Positions 641-22,541 of a DNA stretch of 25,849 nucleotides are shown here, in pieces. A program made the translations under genes and the position numbers. The notes under the pieces were generated by a model. It searched no databases, had not been told where the DNA came from, and saw only the letters and a list, made by a program, of their open reading frames with translations. The DNA comes from a virus (Duplodnaviria > Heunggongvirae > Uroviricota > Caudoviricetes), in IMG/VR virus record IMGVR_UViG_2909246061_000004. The stretch is one strand, 5' to 3'. Position 1 is the stretch's first letter. The number at the start of each line of letters is the position of its first letter.

Positions 641-696
641 AAACGGCGGCAGAGCAGTCACGGAGTAAAACTGATACCGCCAAACGTCACCAGAAA
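641..696 (-). ncRNA. dicF: DicF small regulatory RNA with 3' terminator U-tract
   Basis: Reverse complement of 645..696 reads TTTCTGGTGACGTTTGGCGGTATCAGTTTTACTCCGTGACTGCTCTGCCGCC, matching remembered DicF, followed by TTTTTAAAG on the minus strand. Confidence 0.8.
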
Positions 697-4766: not shown

Positions 4767-6050
4767 CGAGATTAAAGTGCATTAGTTCAGATGCAAATTG
4801 ACATTTTGTGGCACAGGGTAGAGCTAGCGTGGTTGTCCGCTTTGTGCCAACAGCGGACATTATGGAAGGTCAGAGTTAAAGATTAAAATGGGATGCTGTG
4901 TGTTTTCTCCAGGTTTTGCTCTATACCTTTCGGGATACTCCACCGACAGAATACGAAAATCAACATTATCAACGGCTCGAAGTGTCTAGATTATCCATGG
5001 CAATTCATGGGAAATCCCATCCAACGGCTTATGCTTCATGTTGCTTTTTGAGATCGCTTCTAGCATAGCTCCACTCAATAATGTTGTCGGGTCGTTGCTG
5101 ATCGAAAAGGATACGGGATTCAATACCATTACCTAAAAAGCTGGTATTCCCATCTACGTAAGAAGCTATCCCTTGTGAACCAACACGAAGAATATTTTCT
5201 AATGGCTGTTTTGTTCTTGCTGCATCGCTAAGGAGATATAAACCCGGGTACGTTTTGTTAGCACGGTGAAAAAAAAGTTCATTGTCAAAACACATGACGA
5301 TGATTATTTGTCCCGACATGAGATCGGAGAGCATTTCAGTTGGCAGATGCAAACTCATAAATGGTCGAGACAAAGGGTCAAAGAATGAATCATTTATATT
5401 CACAACAGGGCTTTTTATACCGAGACTATCCATCCATCCATTGAAGGCAACAAAGCCCATTTCAGAATCACGGTACATACCTAAGAACAAACATTCATCA
5501 ATAGTATCAATTGCCCAATTTTTTCCTCCGCGAATAATCTCCCACATTTTAACTAAGCGGTGGGTATAAAATTCAGACGGATGATCTATCTCATTGATTT
5601 TAACTTTAGACTGATGAAAGTTGTCAAAGCCCTCGCCAGTATTAATCGCCTCCAGAACATTCATGCCACGAATGATTTGCCTTTTTATGCGATTAAATTG
5701 CTTAACATCATTATCAGGCATATTGTTAATGAAGTTTTCTTCAAAGTGCGGACATTCTGAGATAACAGAAAATTCAGCAGCTTCATAAAGCTCATTATTC
5801 TTTTCACCTGTTTTAACTTCCACGAGCTGGAAGCCATCCAGTAGATTAAAGGTGACTAAATCTCCCACATGAACAAATGTGCTCATGTCAGAGACAATCG
5901 CTACGGAGTGTTTGTCCTGGTTGATAAGATCGGCTGCGACCATAGAATCAATTATGTTATCTTCTGATAGATTGTCATTGCTTGCATTAATAGGTAAACG
6001 CCGCAAACTAGAGTGTTCTTCATCAAGAATGCTCCAAATTATTGAGTCAA

Positions 6051-6059
6051 TACAACGGC
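6051..6059. repeat. IS1 target-site duplication, left copy (TACAACGGC)
   Basis: Identical 9-mer at 6828..6836 directly flanking the other IS1 end. Confidence 0.85.
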
Positions 6060-6074
6060 GGTAATGACTCCAAC

Positions 6075-6578
6075 TTATTGATAGTGTTTTATGTTCAGAT
6101 AATGCCCGATGACTTTGTCATGCAGCTCCACCGATTTTGAGAACGACAGCGACTTCCGTCCCAGCCGTGCCAGGTGCTGCCTCAGATTCAGGTTATGCCG
6201 CTCAATTCGCTGCGTATATCGCTTGCTGATTACGTGCAGCTTTCCCTTCAGGCGGGATTCATACAGCGGCCAGCCATCCGTCATCCATATCACCACGTCA
6301 AAGGGTGACAGCAGGCTCATAAGACGCCCCAGCGTCGCCATAGTGCGTTCACCGAATACGTGCGCAACAACCGTCTTCCGGAGCCTGTCATACGCGTAAA
6401 ACAGCCAGCGCTGGCGCGATTTAGCCCCGACATAGCCCCACTGTTCGTCCATTTCCGCGCAGACGATGACGTCACTGCCCGGCTGTATGCGCGAGGTTAC
6501 CGACTGCGGCCTGAGTTTTTTAAATGGCGGAAAATCGTGTTGAGGCCAACGCCCATAATGCGGGCGGTTGCCCGGCAT
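6075..6578 (-). CDS. insB: IS1 InsB (transposase C-terminal frame)
   Basis: 167-aa ORF matching remembered IS1 InsB. Confidence 0.9.
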
Positions 6579-6772
6579 CCAACGCCATTCATGGCCATAT
6601 CAATGATTTTCTGGTGCGTACCGGGTTGAGAAGCGGTGTAAGTGAACTGCAGTTGCCATGTTTTACGGCAGTGAGAGCAGAGATAGCGCTGATGTCCGGC
6701 AGTGCTTTTGCCGTTACGCACCACCCCGTCAGTAGCTGAACAGGAGGGACAGCTGATAGAAACAGAAGCCAC
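6497..6772 (-). CDS. insA: IS1 InsA
   Basis: 91-aa [43 protein letters not shown]... matching remembered IS1 InsA. Confidence 0.9.
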
Positions 6773-6827
6773 TGGAGCACCTCAAAAACACCATCATACA
6801 CTAAATCAGTAAGTTGGCAGCATCACC

Positions 6828-6836
6828 TACAACGGC
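6828..6836. repeat. IS1 target-site duplication, right copy (TACAACGGC)
   Basis: Identical to 6051..6059. Confidence 0.85.
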
Positions 6837-7286
6837 GAAGAATAAGAATTTCAAATTTTTTTAAACTTATTTCATCAATACACTTTTCTTTATTTTCTTT
6901 ATCCTTGTTTCGATGGTGCTCTTTTTTTTCAGTTTTCAATCTTTTTATATCTCTCAGCCGAATAATAATCTCAAAAGATATGATTTTTTGTGAGTCTTTC
7001 CAATTTTTGAGACAGGTTTCATACTCTGCAAGAAAATCCTCATCATTGGAAGGTAGTTCTTGAATTGGATTCCCTCCCCTTATCATTTTGGCAAGTGCAT
7101 GCATTAAAGATACATAATGAGGTGATAAAATTGTCCAAAACTTCCTAAACGGTTTGTACTTTTCAAGAAAAGTTGACTCATCAGTATAATTCATCATAAC
7201 CAAACCTCATTCCTCTTATCTATTTTCCTCAAGGTATAAAATACCAGCCTTTTTTACATAATTATAGTTATAATATGAAGTCTCAT

Positions 7287-8156
7287 TCAGATATCTTCAT
7301 ACTGTACGTAAGAAATATTTGAGCCTCTGATACCATAATCTTCTAAACTGCCTGATTTTTTCTCACCTCTATATAAAGCAACTATCCATCGAGCATTTTC
7401 TTGGATGCTTTTATTTATTTCAGTAAAGTATTCACCGTCAACTTCGGCGAGCGAGTGGCCTAAAACGATGACCTCGTCCACATTTTTAAGCGATGAGAAA
7501 AAAACGTTTTCTTCTTTAATTATGTCTTCGCTGGGCTTGAATGTATTACCGAAGTATTCGTTTATTCTGTCGTATGCCTCTGCTATTCTTGTATCTTGAT
7601 CCGGTCCTATATATGGATTTAGTGACTTTTCCACCCTAAAACTATGACCAAGTATGAGATCGTCATCGTAACTACAATTGCCGTGAATATGTATGATTTG
7701 CTCGTCTGGAACGGCATAGATCTGCTGCAAGGTATTTGTATAATTAAATGAAAAATAGATGCTTTCTCTTGGTATGGGCGGGATGTATTGCTTAGGATTG
7801 TAAGCATCGGCTATGTTAATCCCTTTAACCCAATCAGCGAATTGCTCCTTCAAACGAGCTGACAGCATTTGTGTGATTTTATTTACTTCATATTGGTAAT
7901 CGTGATGATAAGCATCGCTCCAATCATCGGTATTGTATGAAGCCAAAAATATCTCACTGTTTTGAAGGATAAGCTCATAATCAATTTCACCTAAAGCATT
8001 TTCTAACTCATTCCACTCGTCCCCAGCAGGAATGTATTCTTCTATCGCGTCATATAGATCTTGGTCATTTTTTTCTACATACGACTTAAAGTGCTTGTAT
8101 CCTGTTGGTAAGCCATGACGCATGTCAAATCCATTTCCTATTATGTAAAGCCTCAT
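7287..8156 (-). CDS. AbiH-like abortive-infection protein (290 aa)
   Basis: Start at the ATG at 8156 with AAGGGA RBS 8 nt upstream; N-terminus MRLYIIGNGFDMRHGLPTGY carries the IGNGFD-x-HGL motif remembered for the AbiH family; AT-rich gene inside a prophage. Confidence 0.5.
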   Translation of the reverse strand: MRLYIIGNGFDMRHGLPTGYKHFKSYVEKNDQDLYDAIEEYIPAGDEWNELENALGEIDYELILQNSEIFLASYNTDDWSDAYHHDYQYEVNKITQMLSARLKEQFADWVKGINIADAYNPKQYIPPIPRESIYFSFNYTNTLQQIYAVPDEQIIHIHGNCSYDDDLILGHSFRVEKSLNPYIGPDQDTRIAEAYDRINEYFGNTFKPSEDIIKEENVFFSSLKNVDEVIVLGHSLAEVDGEYFTEINKSIQENARWIVALYRGEKKSGSLEDYGIRGSNISYVQYEDI

Positions 8157-8470
8157 TGTTTTTCCCTTAGTCGAATTGTATAAAAATACTAACATGGCCT
8201 GCTCCACGTTGACTACTATCCCCTCCTTTGAGTAATGCCTTCATCAGATGTAACAACATTTGCGAGCTTCCACAGTTCGCTCAAAGCGGACTAGAAGGTT
8301 AGCTTGCGTCGGACTTGGCGTATTTAAAGAAGTGCTGGTGGAGACTGGTTGTTGTGTTCCATTTCTACAGAACAAAATCACAGAAACTATACCCAATAGT
8401 TATATTGAATCAATGATGAGACAGCCTCATATTTATCAGGACTGGTGTACGTCCAATACAGGAGGTTGTC

Positions 8471-8560: not shown

Positions 8561-8771
8561 TTTTATATTGGCGAGGTGACGTGAGTTAAGTAGAATTGCT
8601 GCGGGTGCTTGAGGCTATCTGCCTCAGGCATGAACACCAAAGGCAGATAGAGAAAAGCCCCAGTTAACATTACGCGTCCTGCAAGACGCTTAACATTAAT
8701 CTGAGGCCAATTTCATGCTAGACACATGTAGGTTAGCCTCTTACGTGCCGAAAGGCAAGGAGAAGCAGGCT

Positions 8772-8927
8772 ATGAAGCAGCAAAAGGCGATGTTAATCGC
8801 CCTGATCGTCATCTGTTTAACCGTCATAGTGACGGCACTGGTAACGAGGAAAGACCTCTGCGAGGTACGAATCCGAACCGGCCAGACGGAGGTCGCTGTC
8901 TTCACAGCTTACGAACCTGAGGAGTAA
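8772..8927 (+). CDS. hokD: Hok-family type I toxin (51 aa), HokD/RelF-like
   Basis: MKQQKAMLIALIVICLTVIVTALVTRKDLCEVRIRTGQTEVAVFTAYEPEE matches remembered HokD; AAGGAG RBS; structured leader upstream and terminator downstream. Confidence 0.85.
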   Translation: MKQQKAMLIALIVICLTVIVTALVTRKDLCEVRIRTGQTEVAVFTAYEPEE

Positions 8928-10732: not shown

Positions 10733-11110
10733 ATGCGTGATATTCAGATGGTTCTTGAGCGTTGGGGGGCATGGGCGGCTAATAATCATGAAGATGTGAC
10801 CTGGTCGTCCATTGCCGCCGGTTTTAAGGGATTAATTCCTTCAAAAGTAAGATCTCGTCCGCAATGCTGTGACGATGACGCGATGATCATTTGTGAATGT
10901 ATGGCTCGCCTGAAAAAAAACAACAGCGATTTACATGATTTATTGGTGGACTATTATGTCGGCGGCATGACTTTTATGGCGCTTGCACATAAGCATGGGC
11001 GATCTGATTGTTGGGTTGGCAGGATGCTCCAGAAAGCTGAGGGCGTAGTGGAGGGCATGCTGATGGTGTTGGATCTCCGATTGGAGATGGATGCTGATTG
11101 TTCGAAATAA
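10733..11110 (+). CDS. Late-gene antiterminator Q (phage 82/21-type, QuuD-like)
   Basis: [31 protein letters not shown]... matches the remembered Q-family N-terminus; located immediately before a terminator and the lysis region. Confidence 0.7.
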
Positions 11111-11122
11111 TTAAAGGAAAAG

Positions 11123-11151
11123 TTGCTGTCTGATTTTCATTAGTCTAACAT
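11123..11151 (+). promoter_or_regulatory. Candidate late promoter pR' (TTGCTG-N17-TAACAT)
   Basis: Sigma70-like hexamers between the Q stop and the downstream terminator; positional analogy to lambda pR'. Confidence 0.2.
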
Positions 11152-11210
11152 TTTAAATGTTGGAATCGCAACGTAGTTATTATCATATAACAGCTTGTTT
11201 CCTGATTTAG

Positions 11211-11237
11211 CCAGCCTCCCCAAAGGCTGGTTTTTTT
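11211..11237 (+). terminator. Rho-independent terminator, likely tR' (target of Q antitermination)
   Basis: CCAGCCT-CCCCAA-AGGCTGG hairpin followed by TTTTTTT, about 100 bp after the Q stop. Confidence 0.5.
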
Positions 11238-11265
11238 CTAATAAGTATCATTTCGGGTGGGGATT

Positions 11266-11790
11266 TTATTGTTTAACCCATAATAGTTCATTGACATTGA
11301 ATCCCAACTTTTGAGCGGTACGCACATAGTCTGCTTTTACATTATCTGGAATAGTTTGGGTCCTTGCCAGAATCCATAGGTATTCTCTGTTCGGACCACT
11401 GACAAGAGCATACTTATACTCATCATCCAGTTTGATTACATTATAGCCACCATAGAAGGGGCCAAAAAACGAAACTTTCAACGCTGCAGTTTTAGTATCT
11501 CCAGTAAAGTATGCTTTACCTTCGCTCTCGCTCCATTTGTTTTTCGTTGGATCGTATCCACGGTTAAGTACGCGAATCCCTCCGTCGTTCCGTTTTTCAT
11601 AAGTAGCGCTGACCTGTTCCAGACCACGTTCGAACCAGTTCTCGAGGCGAGCTATTTCATACCATTTTCCGAGGTAGCGGTTGGCGTCAAAATTTGTAAT
11701 CGGCTGCACACCTTTAGGTGGTGTCGGGGCCTTACATGCTATAAGAGTGAAAGAGAGTGCAATGCCAGTCAACACAGGCCATAACTTCAT
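11266..11790 (-). CDS. blc: Outer-membrane lipocalin Blc-like lipoprotein (cargo gene)
   Basis: Signal peptide with lipobox LIAC, then NFDANRYLGKWYEIARLENWFERGLE and SFFGPFYGGYNVI motifs matching remembered E. coli Blc. Confidence 0.7.
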   Translation of the reverse strand: MKLWPVLTGIALSFTLIACKAPTPPKGVQPITNFDANRYLGKWYEIARLENWFERGLEQVSATYEKRNDGGIRVLNRGYDPTKNKWSESEGKAYFTGDTKTAALKVSFFGPFYGGYNVIKLDDEYKYALVSGPNREYLWILARTQTIPDNVKADYVRTAQKLGFNVNELLWVKQ

Positions 11791-11982
11791 AATAAATCCT
11801 GTACTTTTGATAGTTGAGAGTAAGTATGAAAGATAGATGAGTACGACCGATCACTTAAAGAACTTTCCTACTATATTAGGAATAGTCAATAACAGAAAAA
11901 TTGTCAGTGATGAAGCCAGAAAGGCAATTTAGTCCGTGCACTACAAAGTTTATGTGTTAATGAATTAGTCAAGGGGGAGGAA

Positions 11983-12942
11983 ATGATAAAAAAACCTGTG
12001 ATTGGGATCAGCGGTTGTTTGGGCGGTTCTGCTGTTCGTTTTGATGGTGGTCACAAAAGAGATGACTTTTTAATGGACAAATTAGTGGAATGGGTAACAT
12101 TCAGACCAGTATGTCCGGAAATGGCTATAGGGCTGCCAGTTCCGCGTCCTGCTCTACGACTTGTGCGCTCGAAGCAAGGAAATATACGGATGTGTTTCAG
12201 CCACGACCAGAATGAGGATGTGACAGAGAGAATGACAGAGTTTAGTCGTTCTTATATGGACAAATTAAAGGATGTATCGGGGTTTGTGGTTTGTGCTAAA
12301 TCTCCCAGCTGTGGCATGGAGCGCGTGCGTGTCTATGATGAAAATGGTAATCGAGGTCGTAAAGATGGAGTGGGACTATTTACGAGCACTTTGATGGAAA
12401 AGTTTTCCTGGCTACCGGTTGAAGAGGATGGGCGATTACATGATCCAGTGCTTCGTGAGAATTTTATTGAAAGAGTTTTTGCTTTGCATGAGCTCAATCA
12501 CCTTTACAAGGAGAAATTATCAAGAAGAGAGTTATTAGCTTTTCATAGTCGTTATAAGCTTCAGTTGTTGGCGCATAGCCAGGCAGGCTATAAAGATATG
12601 GGACCATTTGTGGCTGCAATACACGAGTGGGCGGACCTTGAATCATACTTTGAGGTGTATCGTGATAATCTGATGGCGATTCTCAGAAAACCAGCATCAC
12701 GTAAAAATCACACGAATGTGCTGATGCATATACAGGGGTATTTTAGTAATTACTTAAGTACACGCCAGCGTAAAGAGTTGAGCGAGGTTATACTTAACTA
12801 TCGCTTTGGCACATTGCCTCTTCTTGCGCCGTTGACTCTGCTGAAGCATTATCTGGGTGAGTATCCTAATGATTACTTGCTTACACAGAATTACTTCGAT
12901 CCCTATCCGGAAGAACTGGCTCTAAGACTGATGGTGAATTAA
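11983..12942 (+). CDS. DUF523-DUF1722 two-domain protein (TudS/RudS-like putative thiouridine desulfidase)
   Basis: ATG with GGGGGAGG RBS; N-terminus IGISGCLGG..VRFDGGHK typical of DUF523, C-terminal half resembles YbgA-like DUF1722; domain call from memory. Confidence 0.5.
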   Translation: MIKKPVIGISGCLGGSAVRFDGGHKRDDFLMDKLVEWVTFRPVCPEMAIGLPVPRPALRLVRSKQGNIRMCFSHDQNEDVTERMTEFSRSYMDKLKDVSGFVVCAKSPSCGMERVRVYDENGNRGRKDGVGLFTSTLMEKFSWLPVEEDGRLHDPVLRENFIERVFALHELNHLYKEKLSRRELLAFHSRYKLQLLAHSQAGYKDMGPFVAAIHEWADLESYFEVYRDNLMAILRKPASRKNHTNVLMHIQGYFSNYLSTRQRKELSEVILNYRFGTLPLLAPLTLLKHYLGEYPNDYLLTQNYFDPYPEELALRLMVN

Positions 12943-13348
12943 CTGTATGCGATATCATCTGAAAGTGATGAGTTCCTGTATGCAGGATATTTACAATCGT
13001 AAAAACTACGCTATGATGCTCATAGTGTCAGTTTTTATAAAAATCCTGTTCACGCTAAAGAAAACATTGAGATGCAATTTAATGTTGGTAAACATACCAG
13101 CCCCAAAAGATTTTATTCAATCTGTTTTTATATGAAGATATTTCAAGTGAATATAAAGAGCATATAATATTATTATTGCACGCAGCTATTATAATATAAC
13201 AGATTAGTTTAATGATTTGTTTTTTGTGAGTTAAACACATGGTTTTATAGTTGTGATGCAATGAGATTTTCCTTATTGTTGAACTGGCGAATATTGATTT
13301 TCCACCTATACTTACCTGGTGTAACCCCAATGATATCAGGTGGATAAT

Positions 13349-14062
13349 ATGTCATACATATGTTCTATCATTTTGGTGTTGAACTCGTTTGGTGTCCGAA
13401 TTGGTAAAGAAGATATTTTGTTTAAAAAAGGAAATGCTGTCCTCATTGAATACAATTTAAAAGATCTTTTTTCGTCAAATACAGATCATCTAATGATCGT
13501 AGATGTTGAGGAGAAAACAGTTAATGATTTCTTTAAAAACTACACACTCTCACCTTTTTCTGTAAGAAGGTTTTATCCGTCATACTTGATAGTAGAATGT
13601 GAAGATTTTTCATTGTTAAAGAACTTGGTTGCATGCTTGAATTGTGATAGCAAAACCGTGGATGTAGTTAGAAATCAAATATCACTTGCATGTCTTGCTG
13701 TCTTATCTTCAGAGAAAATAGTGCAAAGTTTTTTGTTCGGAAGTCTTAATAGCTTAGGTTGTAAAGTTAAGGCTATTATTCACTCGGATATCTCAGCGTC
13801 ATGGAGACTTTGTGATATATCTTCAAGATTATATATGAGCGAGAGTTTGTTAAAAAGAAAATTAAAAGACGAAGGATTATCGTTTAGTAAATTAATTCTT
13901 GAAGAACGAATGATGATGGCGCAAAGATTATTGATCTACAGTAACCATACTGTCGGCAAGGTGGCGGGAATATGCGGGTATGACAATGCATCATATTTTG
14001 TAAGTGTTTTTAGAGGATATTTTGGTGTGCCTCCGCACCAATATTTATCAAGATTTTCTTAG
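13349..14062 (+). CDS. AraC/XylS-family transcriptional regulator, AppY/GadX/Rns-like
   Basis: ATG at 13349 with AGGTGG RBS; N-terminus MSYICSIILV resembles AppY; C-terminal double-HTH region (KVAGICGYDNASYFVSVFRGYFGVPPHQY); very AT-rich upstream region and AT-rich coding sequence. Confidence 0.7.
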   Translation: MSYICSIILVLNSFGVRIGKEDILFKKGNAVLIEYNLKDLFSSNTDHLMIVDVEEKTVNDFFKNYTLSPFSVRRFYPSYLIVECEDFSLLKNLVACLNCDSKTVDVVRNQISLACLAVLSSEKIVQSFLFGSLNSLGCKVKAIIHSDISASWRLCDISSRLYMSESLLKRKLKDEGLSFSKLILEERMMMAQRLLIYSNHTVGKVAGICGYDNASYFVSVFRGYFGVPPHQYLSRFS

Positions 14063-14131
14063 AAGATATGATGTGATGGCATTTTATAAAGTTATTTTTT
14101 GAAGTGTAAGATTATACGATATTTTTAGCTA

Positions 14132-14160
14132 CGCCAGAATAATTGCTGGCGTTTTTCTTT
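14132..14160 (+). terminator. Rho-independent terminator after the AraC-family gene
   Basis: CGCCAG-loop-CTGGCG hairpin followed by TTTTTCTTTTT. Confidence 0.45.
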
Positions 14161-14252
14161 TTGAATAGATGTTCGGGCCTTACGCTAATGTAACTTCTTT
14201 CCTTCTTCGAACCAAACCGTGTACACCATCCGTTATCTGCGGAGGTGAGGCT

Positions 14253-14468
14253 ATGAAATCCATGGATAAGTTAACAACGGGCATCGCCTACAGCACCTCT
14301 GCAGGCAGTGCTGGCTACTGGTTTTTACAGTTGCTCGATAAAGTCACGCCCTCACAGTGGGCGGCAATAGGTGTATTGGGTAGTCTGGTATTTGGCATGC
14401 TGACGTATCTGACAAATCTTTATTTCAAGATTAAAGAAGACAGGCGTAAGACTGCGAGAGGAGAGTAA
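14253..14468 (+). CDS. Pinholin (phage 21 S21-like), dual-start MKSM motif
   Basis: [66 protein letters not shown] closely matches remembered S21; GGAGGTGAGG RBS. Confidence 0.8.

Positions 14469-14780: not shown

Positions 14781-14784
<4 letters not shown>
14473..14784 (+). CDS. YdfR-like protein between holin and endolysin (103 aa)
   Basis: Position and length match remembered Qin ydfR; no function inferred. Confidence 0.45.
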
Positions 14785-15808
<1,024 letters not shown>

Positions 15809-16171
15809 GGTAATATTAAATCGGAACATTTACATCGCGGAATGTAAAATTTAAATAAAAAGGACTCTTCCATGAGCCAAAATTCCTGAAATCTTAAGGG
15901 TAAGATAAAAGGTCTTAATCAGAATGACACGTTATTATTAATAAATAAAGCTATTCTTTCATTGCTGTGTTTTTCTTTACAAAAGTAATCCTTGCTATGG
16001 GTGGTTAATCATGCGTTAATGGTGTTCTGGTTTGTTACAAATTTATCTGAAGCAGTCATTGTTATAATTTTATTATTTGTACCTCTTGAGATTTCCTTGT
16101 TGGTTTTTCTCTCTGATATTTTTTTTCGGACCATTCTGCCCAAGGGCTAATTTCTTCAAAAGGTAATAATT

Positions 16172-16384
16172 ATGTCTAACAAAATGACTGGTTTAGTGAA
16201 ATGGTTTAACCCTGAAAAAGGTTTTGGTTTCATCACGCCGAAAGATGGCAGCAAAGATGTGTTTGTCCATTTCTCAGCAATTCAGAGCAACGATTTCAAA
16301 ACATTAACTGAGAATCAGGAAGTTGAATTTGGTATTGAGAACGGACCTAAAGGTCCTGCCGCTGTTCATGTAGTGGCGCTTTGA
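16172..16384 (+). CDS. cspI: Cold-shock protein CspI
   Basis: [53 protein letters not shown]... matches remembered CspI; long AT-rich 5' leader typical of csp genes. Confidence 0.85.
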
Positions 16385-16591
16385 GGTAGACAATATTACA
16401 AACCATATTCACTTTAGATGCCCGTGTTGTCATGGTTCCCAGTATAGAACATCATCTTTTGATGTTTCTGACATGAATCCTTTCGGGGCAAAATGTATCT
16501 TTTGTAAATCAATGATGATTACATTTGATAATATTTCACAATACTTAAATGCCAGCCGTCTGTCGTTGGATTTAAAAAAGTGAAAATGAAG

Positions 16592-18832: not shown

Positions 18833-20383
18833 ATGGGTTTTTCATCAGCCCGAAATTTGGGAAGGGACATATCGGCAGGATTTTCCCCACCACGTCGCAT
18901 GCCGATTTCGGAGGCTGTTAAAAAATTCATGCGTGTTCCCAAGGGGGCTGGTAACTCGGTGCCATGGGATCCTGAACTGACACCCTACATCATTGAGCCC
19001 ATGAACTGCCTGGCATCGCGTGAATACGATGCGGTGATTTTTGTTGGTCCTGCGCGAACAGGGAAGACCATTGGTCTGATCGATGGATGGATTGTCTATA
19101 CCATCGTTTGCGATCCTTCGGACATGCTCGTTGTGCAGATGACCGAAGATAAGGCCCGCGAGCATTCTAAAAAGCGCCTCGACAGAACGTTCAGAAGCAG
19201 TGCGGCGGTAAAGAAAAGAATGAGTCCACGTCGTAACGACAATAATGTCCATGATAAGACGTTCAGGGATGGCTCGTTCCTTAAAATTGGTTGGCCCTCG
19301 GTAAACATTATGTCGTCGTCGGATTACCGGTTTGTCGCCTTAACCGATTACGACCGTTTTCCGGAGAATATCGACAGCGAGGGTGATGGTTTCTCCCTGG
19401 CCTCAAAACGTACCACCACATTTATGTCCGCCGGGATGACTCTGGTGGAGAGCTCGCCGGGACGTGACATCTGCGACAGCAAATGGCGACGTAAGTCGCC
19501 TCATGAAGCGCCACCGACGACTGGTATTCTTTCCCTTTACAATCGTGGTGACCGCCGCCGCTGGTACTGGTCATGTCCGCACTGCGGTGAATATTTTCAG
19601 CCAGCCATGGATGCCATGACCGGCTACCGTAATGAACCGGATCCCTTTAAAGCCAGTGAGGCGGCGCATCTACTTTGCCCGCACTGCAGCGGCATTATCA
19701 CTGCGGAGAAAAAGCGTGAGCTCAATAGTGCAGGAGTCTGGTTGCGTGAAGGTCAGGTCATTGATCGTAACGGCAACGTTTCCGGTGAACCGCGCCGCTC
19801 CCGTATCGCCAGTTTCTGGATGGAAGGGCCAGCTGCTGCGTATCAGACCTGGGCGCAACTGGTTTACAAATTACTGACTGCAGAACAGGAGTATGAAGCG
19901 ACAGGAAGCGAAGAAACACTCAGGGCGGTTATCAACACCGACTGGGGATTGCCTTATCTTCCTCGTGCCAGCATGGAGCAACGAAAAAGTGAACTGCTTG
20001 AGCAGCGGGCAGAGCTAGTTCCTTCCCGCAGTGTGCCGGATGGCGTTAATTTCCTTGTGGCGACAGTGGATGTGCAGGCGGGACGTCATCGCCGTTTTGT
20101 GGTTCAGGTAACGGGCTATGGCAGTCGTGGCGAACGCTGGATTATTGATCGTTACAACATCACGCAGTCATTGCGCAGTGACTGCGACGGGGAGAGCCAG
20201 CGAATTGATCCGGCCAGCTATCCGGAAGACTGGGATGTCCTGCTGACGGATGTTTTTCATAAAAGCTGGCCGCTGGCCTCCGATCCTTCTCAACAAATGC
20301 GACTGATGGCAATGGCGGTGGACTCCGGCGGTGAAGACGGGGTCACTGATACCGGCTGGCGAGGTTCTGATGGCAATTCTTGA
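18833..20383 (+). pseudogene. Terminase large subunit (lambda gpA-like), C-terminally truncated at ~516 codons
   Basis: AGGAGG RBS; CPHCG zinc-ribbon and gpA-like motifs; ends ...DSGGEDG where remembered lambda gpA (641 aa) continues; portal-like coding sequence follows in another frame. Confidence 0.65.
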
Positions 20384-20567
20384 TGATGTGATTGGCGTTT
20401 TTTCACCAGGATGGAAAGCGGCAAGGCTGCGTTCCCGTGCGGTGATCCAGGCTTATGAGGCCGTAAAAACGACGCGGACACACAAAGCCCGACGGGAGAA
20501 CCGAACTGCCGACCAGTTAAGCCAGTACGGGGCCGTGTCGTTACGTGAGCAGGCCCGTTATGGGTGA
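20370..20567 (+). pseudogene. Portal protein N-terminal fragment (about 65 codons)
   Basis: [52 protein letters not shown] resembles remembered lambda-family portal N-termini; frame ends after ~65 codons. Confidence 0.5.
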
Positions 20568-21966
20568 TCAGCAGCGGCAGCGATATCAGGTACAACTGAG
20601 TCTTCGCCAGAAATACCAGCAACAGCTGGAGCAGTTGAGGCGGGATAGTGAGCAGAAAGGGACATATAACACGGATGACTACAGAAAGGCCGAGCAGGCG
20701 CTGACGGAGAGCCTGAACCGACAACTGAATGAGAATCGCCGTTACTGGCAACAGCTTGAAGTTGTGCAGGGTAACTGGAAAAACGGAGTCCTGCGTGCAT
20801 TTCAGGATTTTACCGTGGATGCAGACAATACGGCAGGAACAGCAGAACAGGTGTTCTCATCAGCCTTCAGCAACATGGGAAATGGCCTGGCAACTTTTGT
20901 CACTACCGGCAAACTCAACTTCAAATCCTTCACCTCTTCGGTGCTGTCAGATATGGCGAAAATCCTGGCGCAGGCAACCATGATGAAATCGATAAAAGGG
21001 ATTGGCAGTGTAACCGCGCTGACAGACAATACGCAGGGGGCAACAGGTCTTGAGTTATACGAGGTGTATAACAACGGATATCCAACAGCGTATGGAAATA
21101 TCATTCACCTGAAAGGGATGACAGCCGTTGGCGAAGGTGAGTTACTCATCGGCTGGAGTGGTACAAGCGGTGCTCATGCTCCGGCATTTATTCGTTCACG
21201 ACGGGATACGACCGACGCAAACTGGTCGCCGTGGGCGCAGCTTTACACCTCGGCTCATCCTCCTGCAGAGTTTTATCCAGTCGGTGCACCAATCCCGTGG
21301 CCATCAGATACCGTTCCGTCTGGCTATGCCCTGATGCAGGGGCAGACTTTTGACAAATCTGCATACCCGAAACTTGCAGCGGCTTATCCGTCAGGCGTGA
21401 TCCCTGATATGCGTGGCTGGACGATTAAGGGCAAACCCGCCAGTGGTCGTGCCGTATTGTCTCAGGAACAGGACGGCATTAAATCGCACACCCACAGCGC
21501 CAGCGCATCCAGTACGGATTTGGGGACGAAAAACACATCGTCGTTTGATTACGGAACCAAATCCACGAATAACACCGGGGCGCATACCCATAGTATTAGC
21601 GGGACTGCAAATAGTGCCGGTGCGCACCAACACAAGAGTTCCGGTGCATTTGGTGGCACGAACACGAGCATTTTCCCTAATGGTTATACCGCGATTTCAA
21701 ATCTAAGCGCGGGGATTATGAGCACAACAAGCGGTAGTGGCCAGACTCGTAATGCAGGGAAGACATCATCAGATGGTGCTCATACCCACTCGCTGTCCGG
21801 CACTGCTGCAAGCGCAGGCGCACATGCACATACTGTCGGTATTGGTGCTCATACGCACTCCGTTGCGATTGGTTCACATGGACACACCATCACCGTTAAC
21901 GCTGCTGGTAACGCGGAAAACACCGTCAAAAACATCGCATTTAACTATATTGTGAGGCTTGCATAA
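20545..21966 (+). CDS. Side tail-fibre protein with a probably unrelated coiled-coil N-terminus (chimeric)
   Basis: C-terminal half carries repeated G-A-H-x-H-S/T motifs and matches remembered Stf C-terminal domains; starts 23 nt before the portal stub ends. Confidence 0.65.
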
Positions 21967-22541
21967 TGGCATTCAGAATGAGTGAACAACCACAGACCAT
22001 AAAAATTTATAATCTGCTGGCCGGAACTAATGAATTTATTGGTGAAGGTGACGCATATATTCCGCCTCATACAGGTCTGCCAGCAAACAGTACCGATATT
22101 GCACCGCCAGATATTCCGGCAGGCTTCGTGGCTGTTTTCAACAGTGATGAGGCATCGTGGCATCTCGTTGAAGATCATCGGGGAAAAACCGTCTATGACG
22201 TGGCTTCCGGCGACGCGTTATTTATTTCTGAACTCGGTCCGTTACCGGAAAATGTTACCTGGTTATCGCCGGAAGGGGAGTTTCAGAAGTGGAACGGCAC
22301 AGCCTGGGTGAAGGATACGGAAGCAGAAAAACTGTTCCGGATCCGGGAGGCGGAAGAAACAAAAAACAACCTGATGCAGGTAGCCAGTGAGCATATTGCG
22401 CCGCTTCAGGATGCTGCAGATCTGGAAATTGCAACGGAGGAAGAAATCTCGTTGCTGGAAGCATGGAAAAAGTATCGGGTATTGCTGAACCGTGTTGATA
22501 CGTCAACTGCACAGGATATTGAATGGCCAGCACTGCCGTAG
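21966..22541 (+). CDS. Tail-fibre assembly protein Tfa
   Basis: [43 protein letters not shown]... typical Tfa; its start overlaps the tail-fibre stop by 1 nt. Confidence 0.8.

Follow-up and report, generated by a model that had tools for sequence, protein, structure and literature searches.

The open reading frame at positions 11983-12942 of the 25,849-nt stretch of viral DNA analyzed here (the window; IMG/VR record IMGVR_UViG_2909246061_000004) very probably encodes, judging from its domains and conserved residues, a RudS-type tRNA 4-thiouridine (s4U) desulfidase, in which a TudS catalytic domain is fused to DUF1722. Together with the genes for a Blc-like lipocalin and an AraC-like regulator, rudS forms a moron of lambdoid phages located between the late antiterminator gene Q and the lysis genes (Table 1). 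The finding is correct but not new, because both the RudS family and a phage member 92% identical to the protein studied here have been published already. The remaining interest lies in the high prevalence of the gene in E. coli and in the reason why temperate phages carry it with a lipocalin.

Table 1 Features of the rudS locus, with positions in the window
Feature	Position	Strand	Evidence
Q-family late antiterminator, upstream boundary of the moron site	10733..11110	+	PF06530 Phage_antitermQ, E 1.6e-50; PGAP CDS
tR'-like intrinsic terminator just 3' of Q, G+C-rich stem of 9 bp, then T7	11209..11240	+	terminator scan
Blc-like outer-membrane lipocalin lipoprotein, divergent from rudS	11266..11790	-	PF08212, E 7.5e-43; NF007786
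blc-rudS divergent intergenic region	11791..11982	.	alignment of 17 intergenic regions
rudS (TudS-DUF1722 fusion, predicted tRNA 4-thiouridine desulfidase)	11983..12942	+	ORF, Pfam, phmmer, alignments, Foldseek
TudS/DUF523 catalytic domain, residues 7-149	12001..12429	+	PF04463, phmmer 6Z92, Foldseek, conservation
DUF1722 helical domain, residues 192-309	12556..12909	+	PF08349, AF2; tRNA anticodon-arm role from PMC11417400
Long intrinsic-terminator-like hairpin with A-tract and U-tract, about 60 nt past the rudS stop	12999..13038	+	terminator scan, fold
AraC-family (YdeO/GadX-like) regulator, third cassette gene, AT-rich	13349..14062	+	PF12833, PF00165
Terminator-like hairpin separating the AraC-like gene from the holin gene	14131..14152	+	terminator scan; weak fold
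essQ-type class II holin, opens the lysis cassette and bounds the moron site downstream	14253..14468	+	PF04971, E 9.8e-34; PGAP essQ
Lysozyme	14781-15314		
Rz-like gene	15311-15808		

The gene is a single uninterrupted reading frame, which opens with an ATG at 11983, closes with a stop codon ending at 12942, encodes 319 amino acids and has a strong Shine-Dalgarno sequence, GGGGGAGG, just upstream at 11973-11980. An earlier note, made from the sequence alone, had described the product as a prophage-borne protein with a cysteine-containing, TudS-type DUF523 half at the N-terminus and a YbgA-like DUF1722 half at the C-terminus, and had suggested a Pfam search as a check; that search returned both predicted domains. 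PF04463 (2-thiouracil desulfurase, formerly DUF523) matches residues 7-149 with an E-value of 5.8e-40 (137 bits against a cutoff of 34.7), and PF08349 (DUF1722) matches residues 192-309 with an E-value of 9.4e-40 (136 bits against a cutoff of 22.5). Both matches span the full models, of 141 and 117 positions, respectively, and are far beyond chance; the IGISGCLGG motif singled out in the note corresponds to residues 7-15. In E. coli genomes of identical sequence, the PGAP annotation at these coordinates reads 'YbgA family protein' or 'DUF523 and DUF1722 domain-containing protein'. Identity with E. coli's own ybgA was rejected, because the NCBIfam YbgA equivalog model NF007549 matches residues 161-315 only, with a score (189.1 bits) below its cutoff of 237, and because a TudS domain is present. 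Nor does the protein belong to the stand-alone TudS class, which comprises single-domain proteins of about 150-166 amino acids, given its length of 319 amino acids and the additional DUF1722.

The catalytic site expected of such an enzyme is fully represented. In a phmmer search against PDB sequences, TudS (6Z92) was the sole match, and in the resulting alignment C12, C44, and C110 pair with the cluster ligands C10, C43, and C104 of TudS; the numbering of these cysteines is identical in the phage and Salmonella orthologs RudS_vir and RudS_ST. Conservation was assessed in an alignment of 141 sequences, namely the query and 140 full-length representatives of 50%-identity clusters that are 35-56% identical to it. 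The three predicted Fe-S ligands, the presence of which the earlier note had proposed to verify, are all in place and are conserved in 139 (C12), 139 (C44), and 137 (C110) of the 141 homologs, as are E46 and S107 (140 each), R55 and R19 (139 each), and S109 (134). These eight residues are invariant across 27 Enterobacterales homologs, and so is, in the Enterobacterales homologs, the DUF1722 Ser-Arg pair S239/R240, which matches S243/R244 of the Pseudomonas ortholog RudS_KT by spacing. An AF2 model, computed from 27 sequences, reached only moderate confidence (pLDDT 67.6; loops 13-25 and 107-109, which bind the cluster, are below 50) and was used for the TudS fold match only, not for geometry. 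Its N-terminal half matches the TudS crystal structures 6z96/6z92 with a Foldseek probability of 1.0 and a TM-score, relative to the target, of 0.65-0.67, and the model is all-helical from residue 155 onward; for this helical C-terminal DUF1722 half, Foldseek found no matching solved structure in the PDB.

The name RudS for the TudS-DUF1722 fusion comes from Jamontas et al. (NAR 2024; PMC11417400), who over-expressed six orthologs in E. coli and observed a 4.7- to 26-fold decrease of s4U in tRNA with 2-thiocytidine unchanged, and no effect of stand-alone TudS or E. coli YbgA on tRNA s4U. In the same study, cysteine and catalytic mutants of RudS_KT (C17/C49/C114, E51, R60, S111, and S113) lost tRNA desulfidation, and anticodon-arm binding was attributed to DUF1722 (PMC11417400). 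One of the six orthologs, RudS_vir, is gp66 of Escherichia phage 1H12 (YP_009909557.1; PMC11417400). The earlier note had presented this architecture as that of a reported tRNA 4-thiouridine de-modifying enzyme, which is RudS, and its interpretation is supported because the window protein is 92% identical to the s4U-lowering RudS_vir. It should be noted that tRNA desulfidation by RudS_vir was lower than its protein level predicts and that, in a uracil auxotroph, the lag on free 4-thiouracil was shorter with RudS_vir than with any other RudS enzyme tested (PMC11417400). Thus, the phage lineage may be less tRNA-specific.

These two properties of RudS_vir are also what would be expected if the enzyme served mainly in nucleobase or nucleotide salvage in the manner of TudS, acting on free 4-thiouracil, 4-thiouridine, and s4UMP released by tRNA turnover, with tRNA de-modification as a side activity. 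The catalytic domain is, after all, a TudS domain, and TudS enzymes recycle 4-thio-UMP and thiouracil, as described in PMC10611767. We nevertheless consider this explanation improbable: stand-alone TudS left tRNA s4U unchanged, whereas all RudS fusions, including RudS_vir, lowered it (PMC11417400), the DUF1722 domain is under purifying selection, and S239/R240, the spacing match to the mutationally important S243/R244 of RudS_KT, are invariant in Enterobacterales homologs. Desulfidation of tRNA therefore remains the preferred molecular reading of the gene.

The element that carries rudS is a Qin-type E. coli prophage, as shown by the DicF RNA, sok/hokD, and a leader of the cspA type. In a genome whose matching stretches show 100% identity, the annotation lists dicB, ydfU, Q, essQ, ydfR, lysozyme, rzpQ, and cspI, as well as gnsB, tfaQ, pinQ, ydfK, and ydfJ. 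The prophage is defective, its head and tail genes having been lost. The large terminase reading frame ends within its nuclease domain, the reading frame at 20545-21966 reads as a tape-measure/tail-fiber fusion because a tape-measure C-terminal domain is followed by tail-collar and tail-fiber repeat domains, and in the PGAP annotation the terminase, portal, and tape-measure genes are all marked partial. Hence, the prophage-borne location proposed in the earlier note, here between the Q antiterminator gene and the holin/lysozyme/Rz lysis cassette of a defective Qin-type remnant, is borne out, while its wording of a phage carrying the gene holds for the intact phages with the same cassette and not for the present copy, which is a fixed chromosomal remnant.

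Within the cassette, the Blc-like protein scores 312.6 bits against the NCBIfam Blc model NF007786 (cutoff 267), and an N-terminal lipobox, ...TLIAC, is visible in its translation. The AraC-like regulator has its best NCBIfam matches to YdeO, HilD, and GadX, all below their respective cutoffs, and may be related to PatE, PsrA, or PsrB, given 48% identity to one O157:H7 protein. The gene has a GC content of 32-36%, and its product is 76-85% identical in amino acid sequence in other phage copies. No RNA genes were detected in 10900-14300 by Rfam and tRNA scans. The assignment of the three genes as a moron follows from their accessory nature, their position between Q and the holin gene, and their behavior as an exchangeable block among related phages. 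In other lambdoid phages, the Q-holin site holds Shiga toxin genes.

The gene is widespread in E. coli. Of 5426 complete E. coli genomes, 1135 (about 21%) have rudS at a nucleotide identity of at least 90%, nearly always as a chromosomal gene, and in 1063 of the 5426 the match covers at least 80% of the query; HS-type strains are among the natural carriers, and some genomes hold IS-interrupted or shortened copies (H36, H72-H75). The statement that E. coli is without RudS (PMC11417400) is thus true of the core genome but not of about a fifth of sequenced strains. The cassette resides in Qin-type and DLP12-type prophages and in inducible lambdoid phages with complete genomes of 46-48 kb, represented by the isolated phages 1H12, with its relatives, and IdasGreatGrand. 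Gene order is well preserved: among the 80 IMG/VR loci listed, 62 display the order Q (+), blc (-), rudS (+), AraC (+), holin (+), and 8 more have a partial AraC gene, and the distance from the start of blc to the start of rudS is 193 nt in 77 of the 79 loci listed. Nearly all phage loci have rudS linked with the Blc-like gene. Among IMG/VR viral contigs, a search with an alignment of 8 sequences identified 140 relatives versus 126 obtained with the single protein, the additional ones lying outside the 80 loci listed, which indicates that IMG/VR contains few distant phage RudS genes. Comparison of three prophage rudS alleles, with dS of up to 0.30, yielded dN/dS values of 0.11-0.21, indicating that the gene is maintained by purifying selection.

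The nearest relatives outside E. coli are chromosomal, 66-76% identical, and encoded in Citrobacter, Enterobacter, Klebsiella, Kluyvera, Leclercia, Pectobacterium, and other genera. A Blc homolog (68-80% identity) is encoded upstream of rudS, in the opposite orientation, at 41 of 62 species-representative chromosomal loci. Citrobacter sedlakii and Citrobacter sp. JGM124 have blc directly adjoining rudS, as in the phage, and in Enterobacter, Leclercia, and Lelliottia, a MerR/MlrA-like regulator gene and a transthyretin-like gene are located between the two. A tblastn search of the window and the phage loci detected neither a MerR/MlrA-like nor a transthyretin-like gene. The prophage blc-rudS pair matches the chromosomal arrangement of Enterobacter and Citrobacter but has lost the MerR-type regulator. 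The light-responsive context with a MerR/LitR regulator and photolyase, which is frequent in the RudS family and not defining for it, is likewise absent around the window gene, the neighbors of which are blc-like and AraC-like. Blc-like genes may occur in light-induced clusters; nothing usable on lipocalins in connection with LitR light regulons emerged from a search of the literature.

Transcription signals were sought throughout the cassette. The hairpin just past Q (dG -14.9 kcal/mol, z -4.3) may, from its position, play the role of tR'. The long hairpin past the rudS stop codon has a dG of -17.6 kcal/mol and a z of -7.1, with 0 of 200 shuffled sequences equally stable, and the one preceding the holin gene a dG of -11.3 kcal/mol and a z of -2.4. 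Megablast homology to the 1H12 cassette stops at query position 1961, that is, at about position 13060 of the window, just past the post-rudS hairpin, and blc-rudS and the AraC-like gene therefore behave as separate modules. Alignment of the intergenic regions anchored at the blc start uncovered a block, TA(C/G)TATATT(A/G)(G/A)GA, which is common to the phage and the chromosomal blc-merR intergenic regions and lies no more than ~110 nt from blc, on the side facing rudS. The TATATT within it (11872-11877) is a candidate -10 element, with a poor -35 region. When the blc-rudS intergenic region was aligned directly with the sequences preceding chromosomal rudS genes, no usable homology emerged upstream of rudS, and a consensus scan detected no sigma-70 sites in 11791-11982; overall, the scan returned 13 sites against 9.7 expected from shuffled sequence, which is no excess. 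With the MerR-type regulator absent and no good sigma-70 promoter upstream, expression of rudS in the lysogen is uncertain and, because the prophage is defective, expression from the late operon depends on whether Q is still made.

These considerations bear on the view that rudS is a silent passenger, captured together with blc from an enterobacterial chromosome and now unexpressed in a defective prophage with no current effect on the host. Such an outcome would fit the loss of the head and tail genes, the native MerR regulator left behind, the failure of the scan to find a strong promoter, and the IS-interrupted or shortened copies in some genomes. It is hard to reconcile, however, with dN/dS values of 0.11-0.21 among alleles whose divergence at synonymous sites reaches 29%, with a reading frame that is full-length (at least 80% coverage) in 1063 genomes, with retention of the cassette in complete phage genomes of 46-48 kb, and with the strong Shine-Dalgarno sequence and the gene's own terminator-like hairpin, and we regard it as unlikely.

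If rudS is instead expressed as a functional desulfidase, a mechanism can be proposed by homology. In the TudS domain, C12, C44, and C110 would ligate a [4Fe-4S] cluster, and the one iron left free, the fourth, would bind the sulfur of 4-thiouridine at tRNA position 8 or 9. E46, oriented by R55, S107, and S109, would activate a water molecule that replaces the sulfur, producing uridine and sulfide, and docking of the helical DUF1722 domain on the anticodon arm would make tRNA preferred over free thiouracil. In the lysogen, a weak promoter belonging to the gene itself might drive its transcription; once the prophage is induced, Q-antiterminated late transcription might also reach it, and either or both of these routes may operate. 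The decrease of s4U may blunt near-UV cross-linking of host tRNA and the ensuing growth delay and stringent response. In this way, E. coli, the core genome of which encodes only the DUF1722 protein YbgA, would gain an activity that is chromosomally encoded in Enterobacter, Citrobacter, and Salmonella.

The physiological role is, however, much less certain than the molecular assignment. An effect of the kind suggested in the earlier note, on UV or stress signaling, has been demonstrated only with over-expressed RudS_KT from Pseudomonas, which cut the growth delay caused by UVA from about 105 minutes to about 60 (PMC11417400). We can only tentatively suggest, as a possibility that we find doubtful rather than probable, that lambdoid phages use blc-rudS, as a cassette for lysogenic conversion or late expression, to edit the tRNA epitranscriptome of the host, with erasure of the photo-crosslinkable s4U disabling the sensor for near-UV growth delay and the stringent response. 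Were this the case, the sensor would be off either constitutively in roughly one in five E. coli strains or only after UV-triggered induction, and in the latter case translation would be kept running for virion production. Furthermore, the pairing of rudS with a lipocalin, which also occurs on chromosomes, would mark an unrecognized two-gene module for near-UV or oxidative stress. Since about 21% of E. coli genomes carry prophage rudS, strain differences in s4U, UVA growth delay, and s4U-based RNA labeling may follow prophage content. That removal of s4U during lytic growth would rather be a counter-defense or takeover measure, altering tRNA stability, recognition by tRNA nucleases, or the stringent response in favor of phage protein synthesis, is very unlikely: although the location of rudS in the late operon, past Q and ahead of the holin gene, puts it within reach of Q-antiterminated transcription, loss of s4U shifts the abundance of tRNA-Ser and tRNA-Tyr, and prophage induction is typically set off by UV and the SOS response, known anticodon nucleases recognize the anticodon loop, outside of which s4U8 lies, and the cassette resembles a lysogenic-conversion moron with its own signals, the lipocalin and regulator partners of which fit host-fitness genes better.

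Among known systems, the closest is RudS_vir, which, like the window protein, consists of 319 amino acids and is 92% identical to it over all 319 residues without gaps; none of the 26 substitutions affects a family-conserved position. Its locus has the same placement, in the order Q, blc (-), rudS, AraC-like gene, holin. The two differ in that the AraC-like neighbor of phage 1H12 is only 76% identical to that in the window, and in that 1H12 is a complete genome of 46.7 kb, whereas the window copy resides in a defective Qin-type prophage. The RudS proteins of Salmonella (RudS_ST; STM1389/ORF319) and E. cloacae (PMC11417400) are chromosomally encoded and equal to the window protein in length and cysteine numbering; chromosomal RudS proteins of Citrobacter, Enterobacter, Klebsiella, and Salmonella are 70-76% identical to it. 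RudS_KT of Pseudomonas putida (PP_0741) has the two-domain architecture in common with the window protein and is distant in sequence. Mapped by motif spacing, C17/C49/C114, E51, R60, S111, and S113 of RudS_KT correspond to C12/C44/C110, E46, R55, S107, and S109 of the window protein, and R24, G27, E152, R155, S243, and R244 correspond to R19, G22, E148, R151, S239, and R240. RudS_KT is encoded in a light-inducible operon with LitR and photolyase genes, a context that the window gene does not have. TudS (6Z92) shares with the window protein the fold of the catalytic domain and the three-cysteine [4Fe-4S] site but, unlike it, is only about 150-166 amino acids long, carries no DUF1722, and does not lower tRNA s4U in vivo. 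Conversely, E. coli YbgA (b0707) is a stand-alone DUF1722 protein that resembles residues 161-315 of the window protein, lacks the catalytic domain and has no effect on s4U.

In the phage cassette, the gene for the Blc-like outer-membrane lipocalin is transcribed divergently from rudS, which encodes the RudS-type tRNA 4-thiouridine desulfidase. The same divergent linkage was found on enterobacterial chromosomes, at 41 of the 62 loci carrying rudS homologues, where the two are often separated by genes for a MerR/MlrA-like regulator and a transthyretin-like protein. Its recurrence in both settings suggests that blc and rudS form a conserved functional module, one absent from discussion in the RudS literature examined. 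Genes for Q, Blc, RudS, the AraC-like regulator and the holin, at 84-97% amino-acid identity, were also recovered from a metagenome-assembled genome that bears the label 'Candidatus Nanosynbacter sp.', on its short contigs JARKOR010000151.1 (locus L055) and JARKOR010000135.1 (locus L060); both contigs almost certainly represent E. coli phage DNA assigned to the wrong bin.

The AraC-like product of the cassette has YdeO, HilD and GadX as its top NCBIfam matches, each scoring far under its cutoff. Over its full length it is 48% identical to WP_000246059.1, an AraC-family protein from a prophage-like element of O157:H7. Because the gene for the latter maps near 0.31 Mb in genomes of the O157 type, WP_000246059.1 may correspond to PatE, a prophage-encoded acid-resistance regulator (reviewed in PMC10877973).

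The prophage itself is defective, as is evident from positions 18833-21966 (plus strand). The large terminase ORF stops inside the nuclease domain, covering profile positions 1-156 of 294, and in the ORF that follows, the C-terminal domain of a tape-measure protein is fused with tail-collar and tail-fibre repeats; no head genes are left in the prophage and most tail genes are gone. Four features recognized by Rfam, namely DicF, sok with hokD, the cspA-type leader and IS009, are hallmarks of the Qin prophage (see the table). The AbiH-family gene adjoins a gene without a Pfam match (region 5029-8207, minus strand). This neighbour is a single coding sequence of 463 aa in strain ECCWS199; in the window, an IS1 element divides it into ORFs at 5029-6006 and 6823-7203.

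Features of the prophage, with positions in the window
Feature	Position	Strand	Basis or remark
DicF sRNA	644-695	-	Rfam, above gathering threshold
IS1 transposase ORF	6075-6578		inside the AbiH neighbour gene
AbiH-family abortive-infection gene	7287-8207	-	PF14253, E 8e-69
sok antitoxin RNA, with hokD	8603-8777	+	Rfam, above gathering threshold
Blc-like outer-membrane lipocalin gene	11266-11790	-	divergent from rudS
AraC-family regulator gene	13349-14062	+	cassette gene no. 3; AT-rich, about 32-36% GC
cspA-type thermoregulator leader	16026-16411	+	upstream of cspI; Rfam, above gathering threshold
IS009	22309-22507	+	Rfam, above gathering threshold

Among the RudS homologues, a single E. coli record of 403 aa (P0002) combines DUF523 and DUF1722 with a GGDEF domain (PF00990). 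Since the prophage in the DLP12-type context is bordered by a gene for a diguanylate cyclase (locus L067, 14506-14960), this fusion probably arose by deletion or as an artefact of assembly and does not represent a new architecture. At the level of single residues, codon 142 of rudS (12406-12408) specifies Ser, and the corresponding position is Pro in at least 95% of the 141 diverse homologues (the query and 140 cluster representatives). Ser142 is a phage-lineage-specific substitution: it is shared by RudS_vir, the gp66 protein of Escherichia phage 1H12, whereas nearly all chromosomal homologues from Enterobacterales carry Pro at this position.
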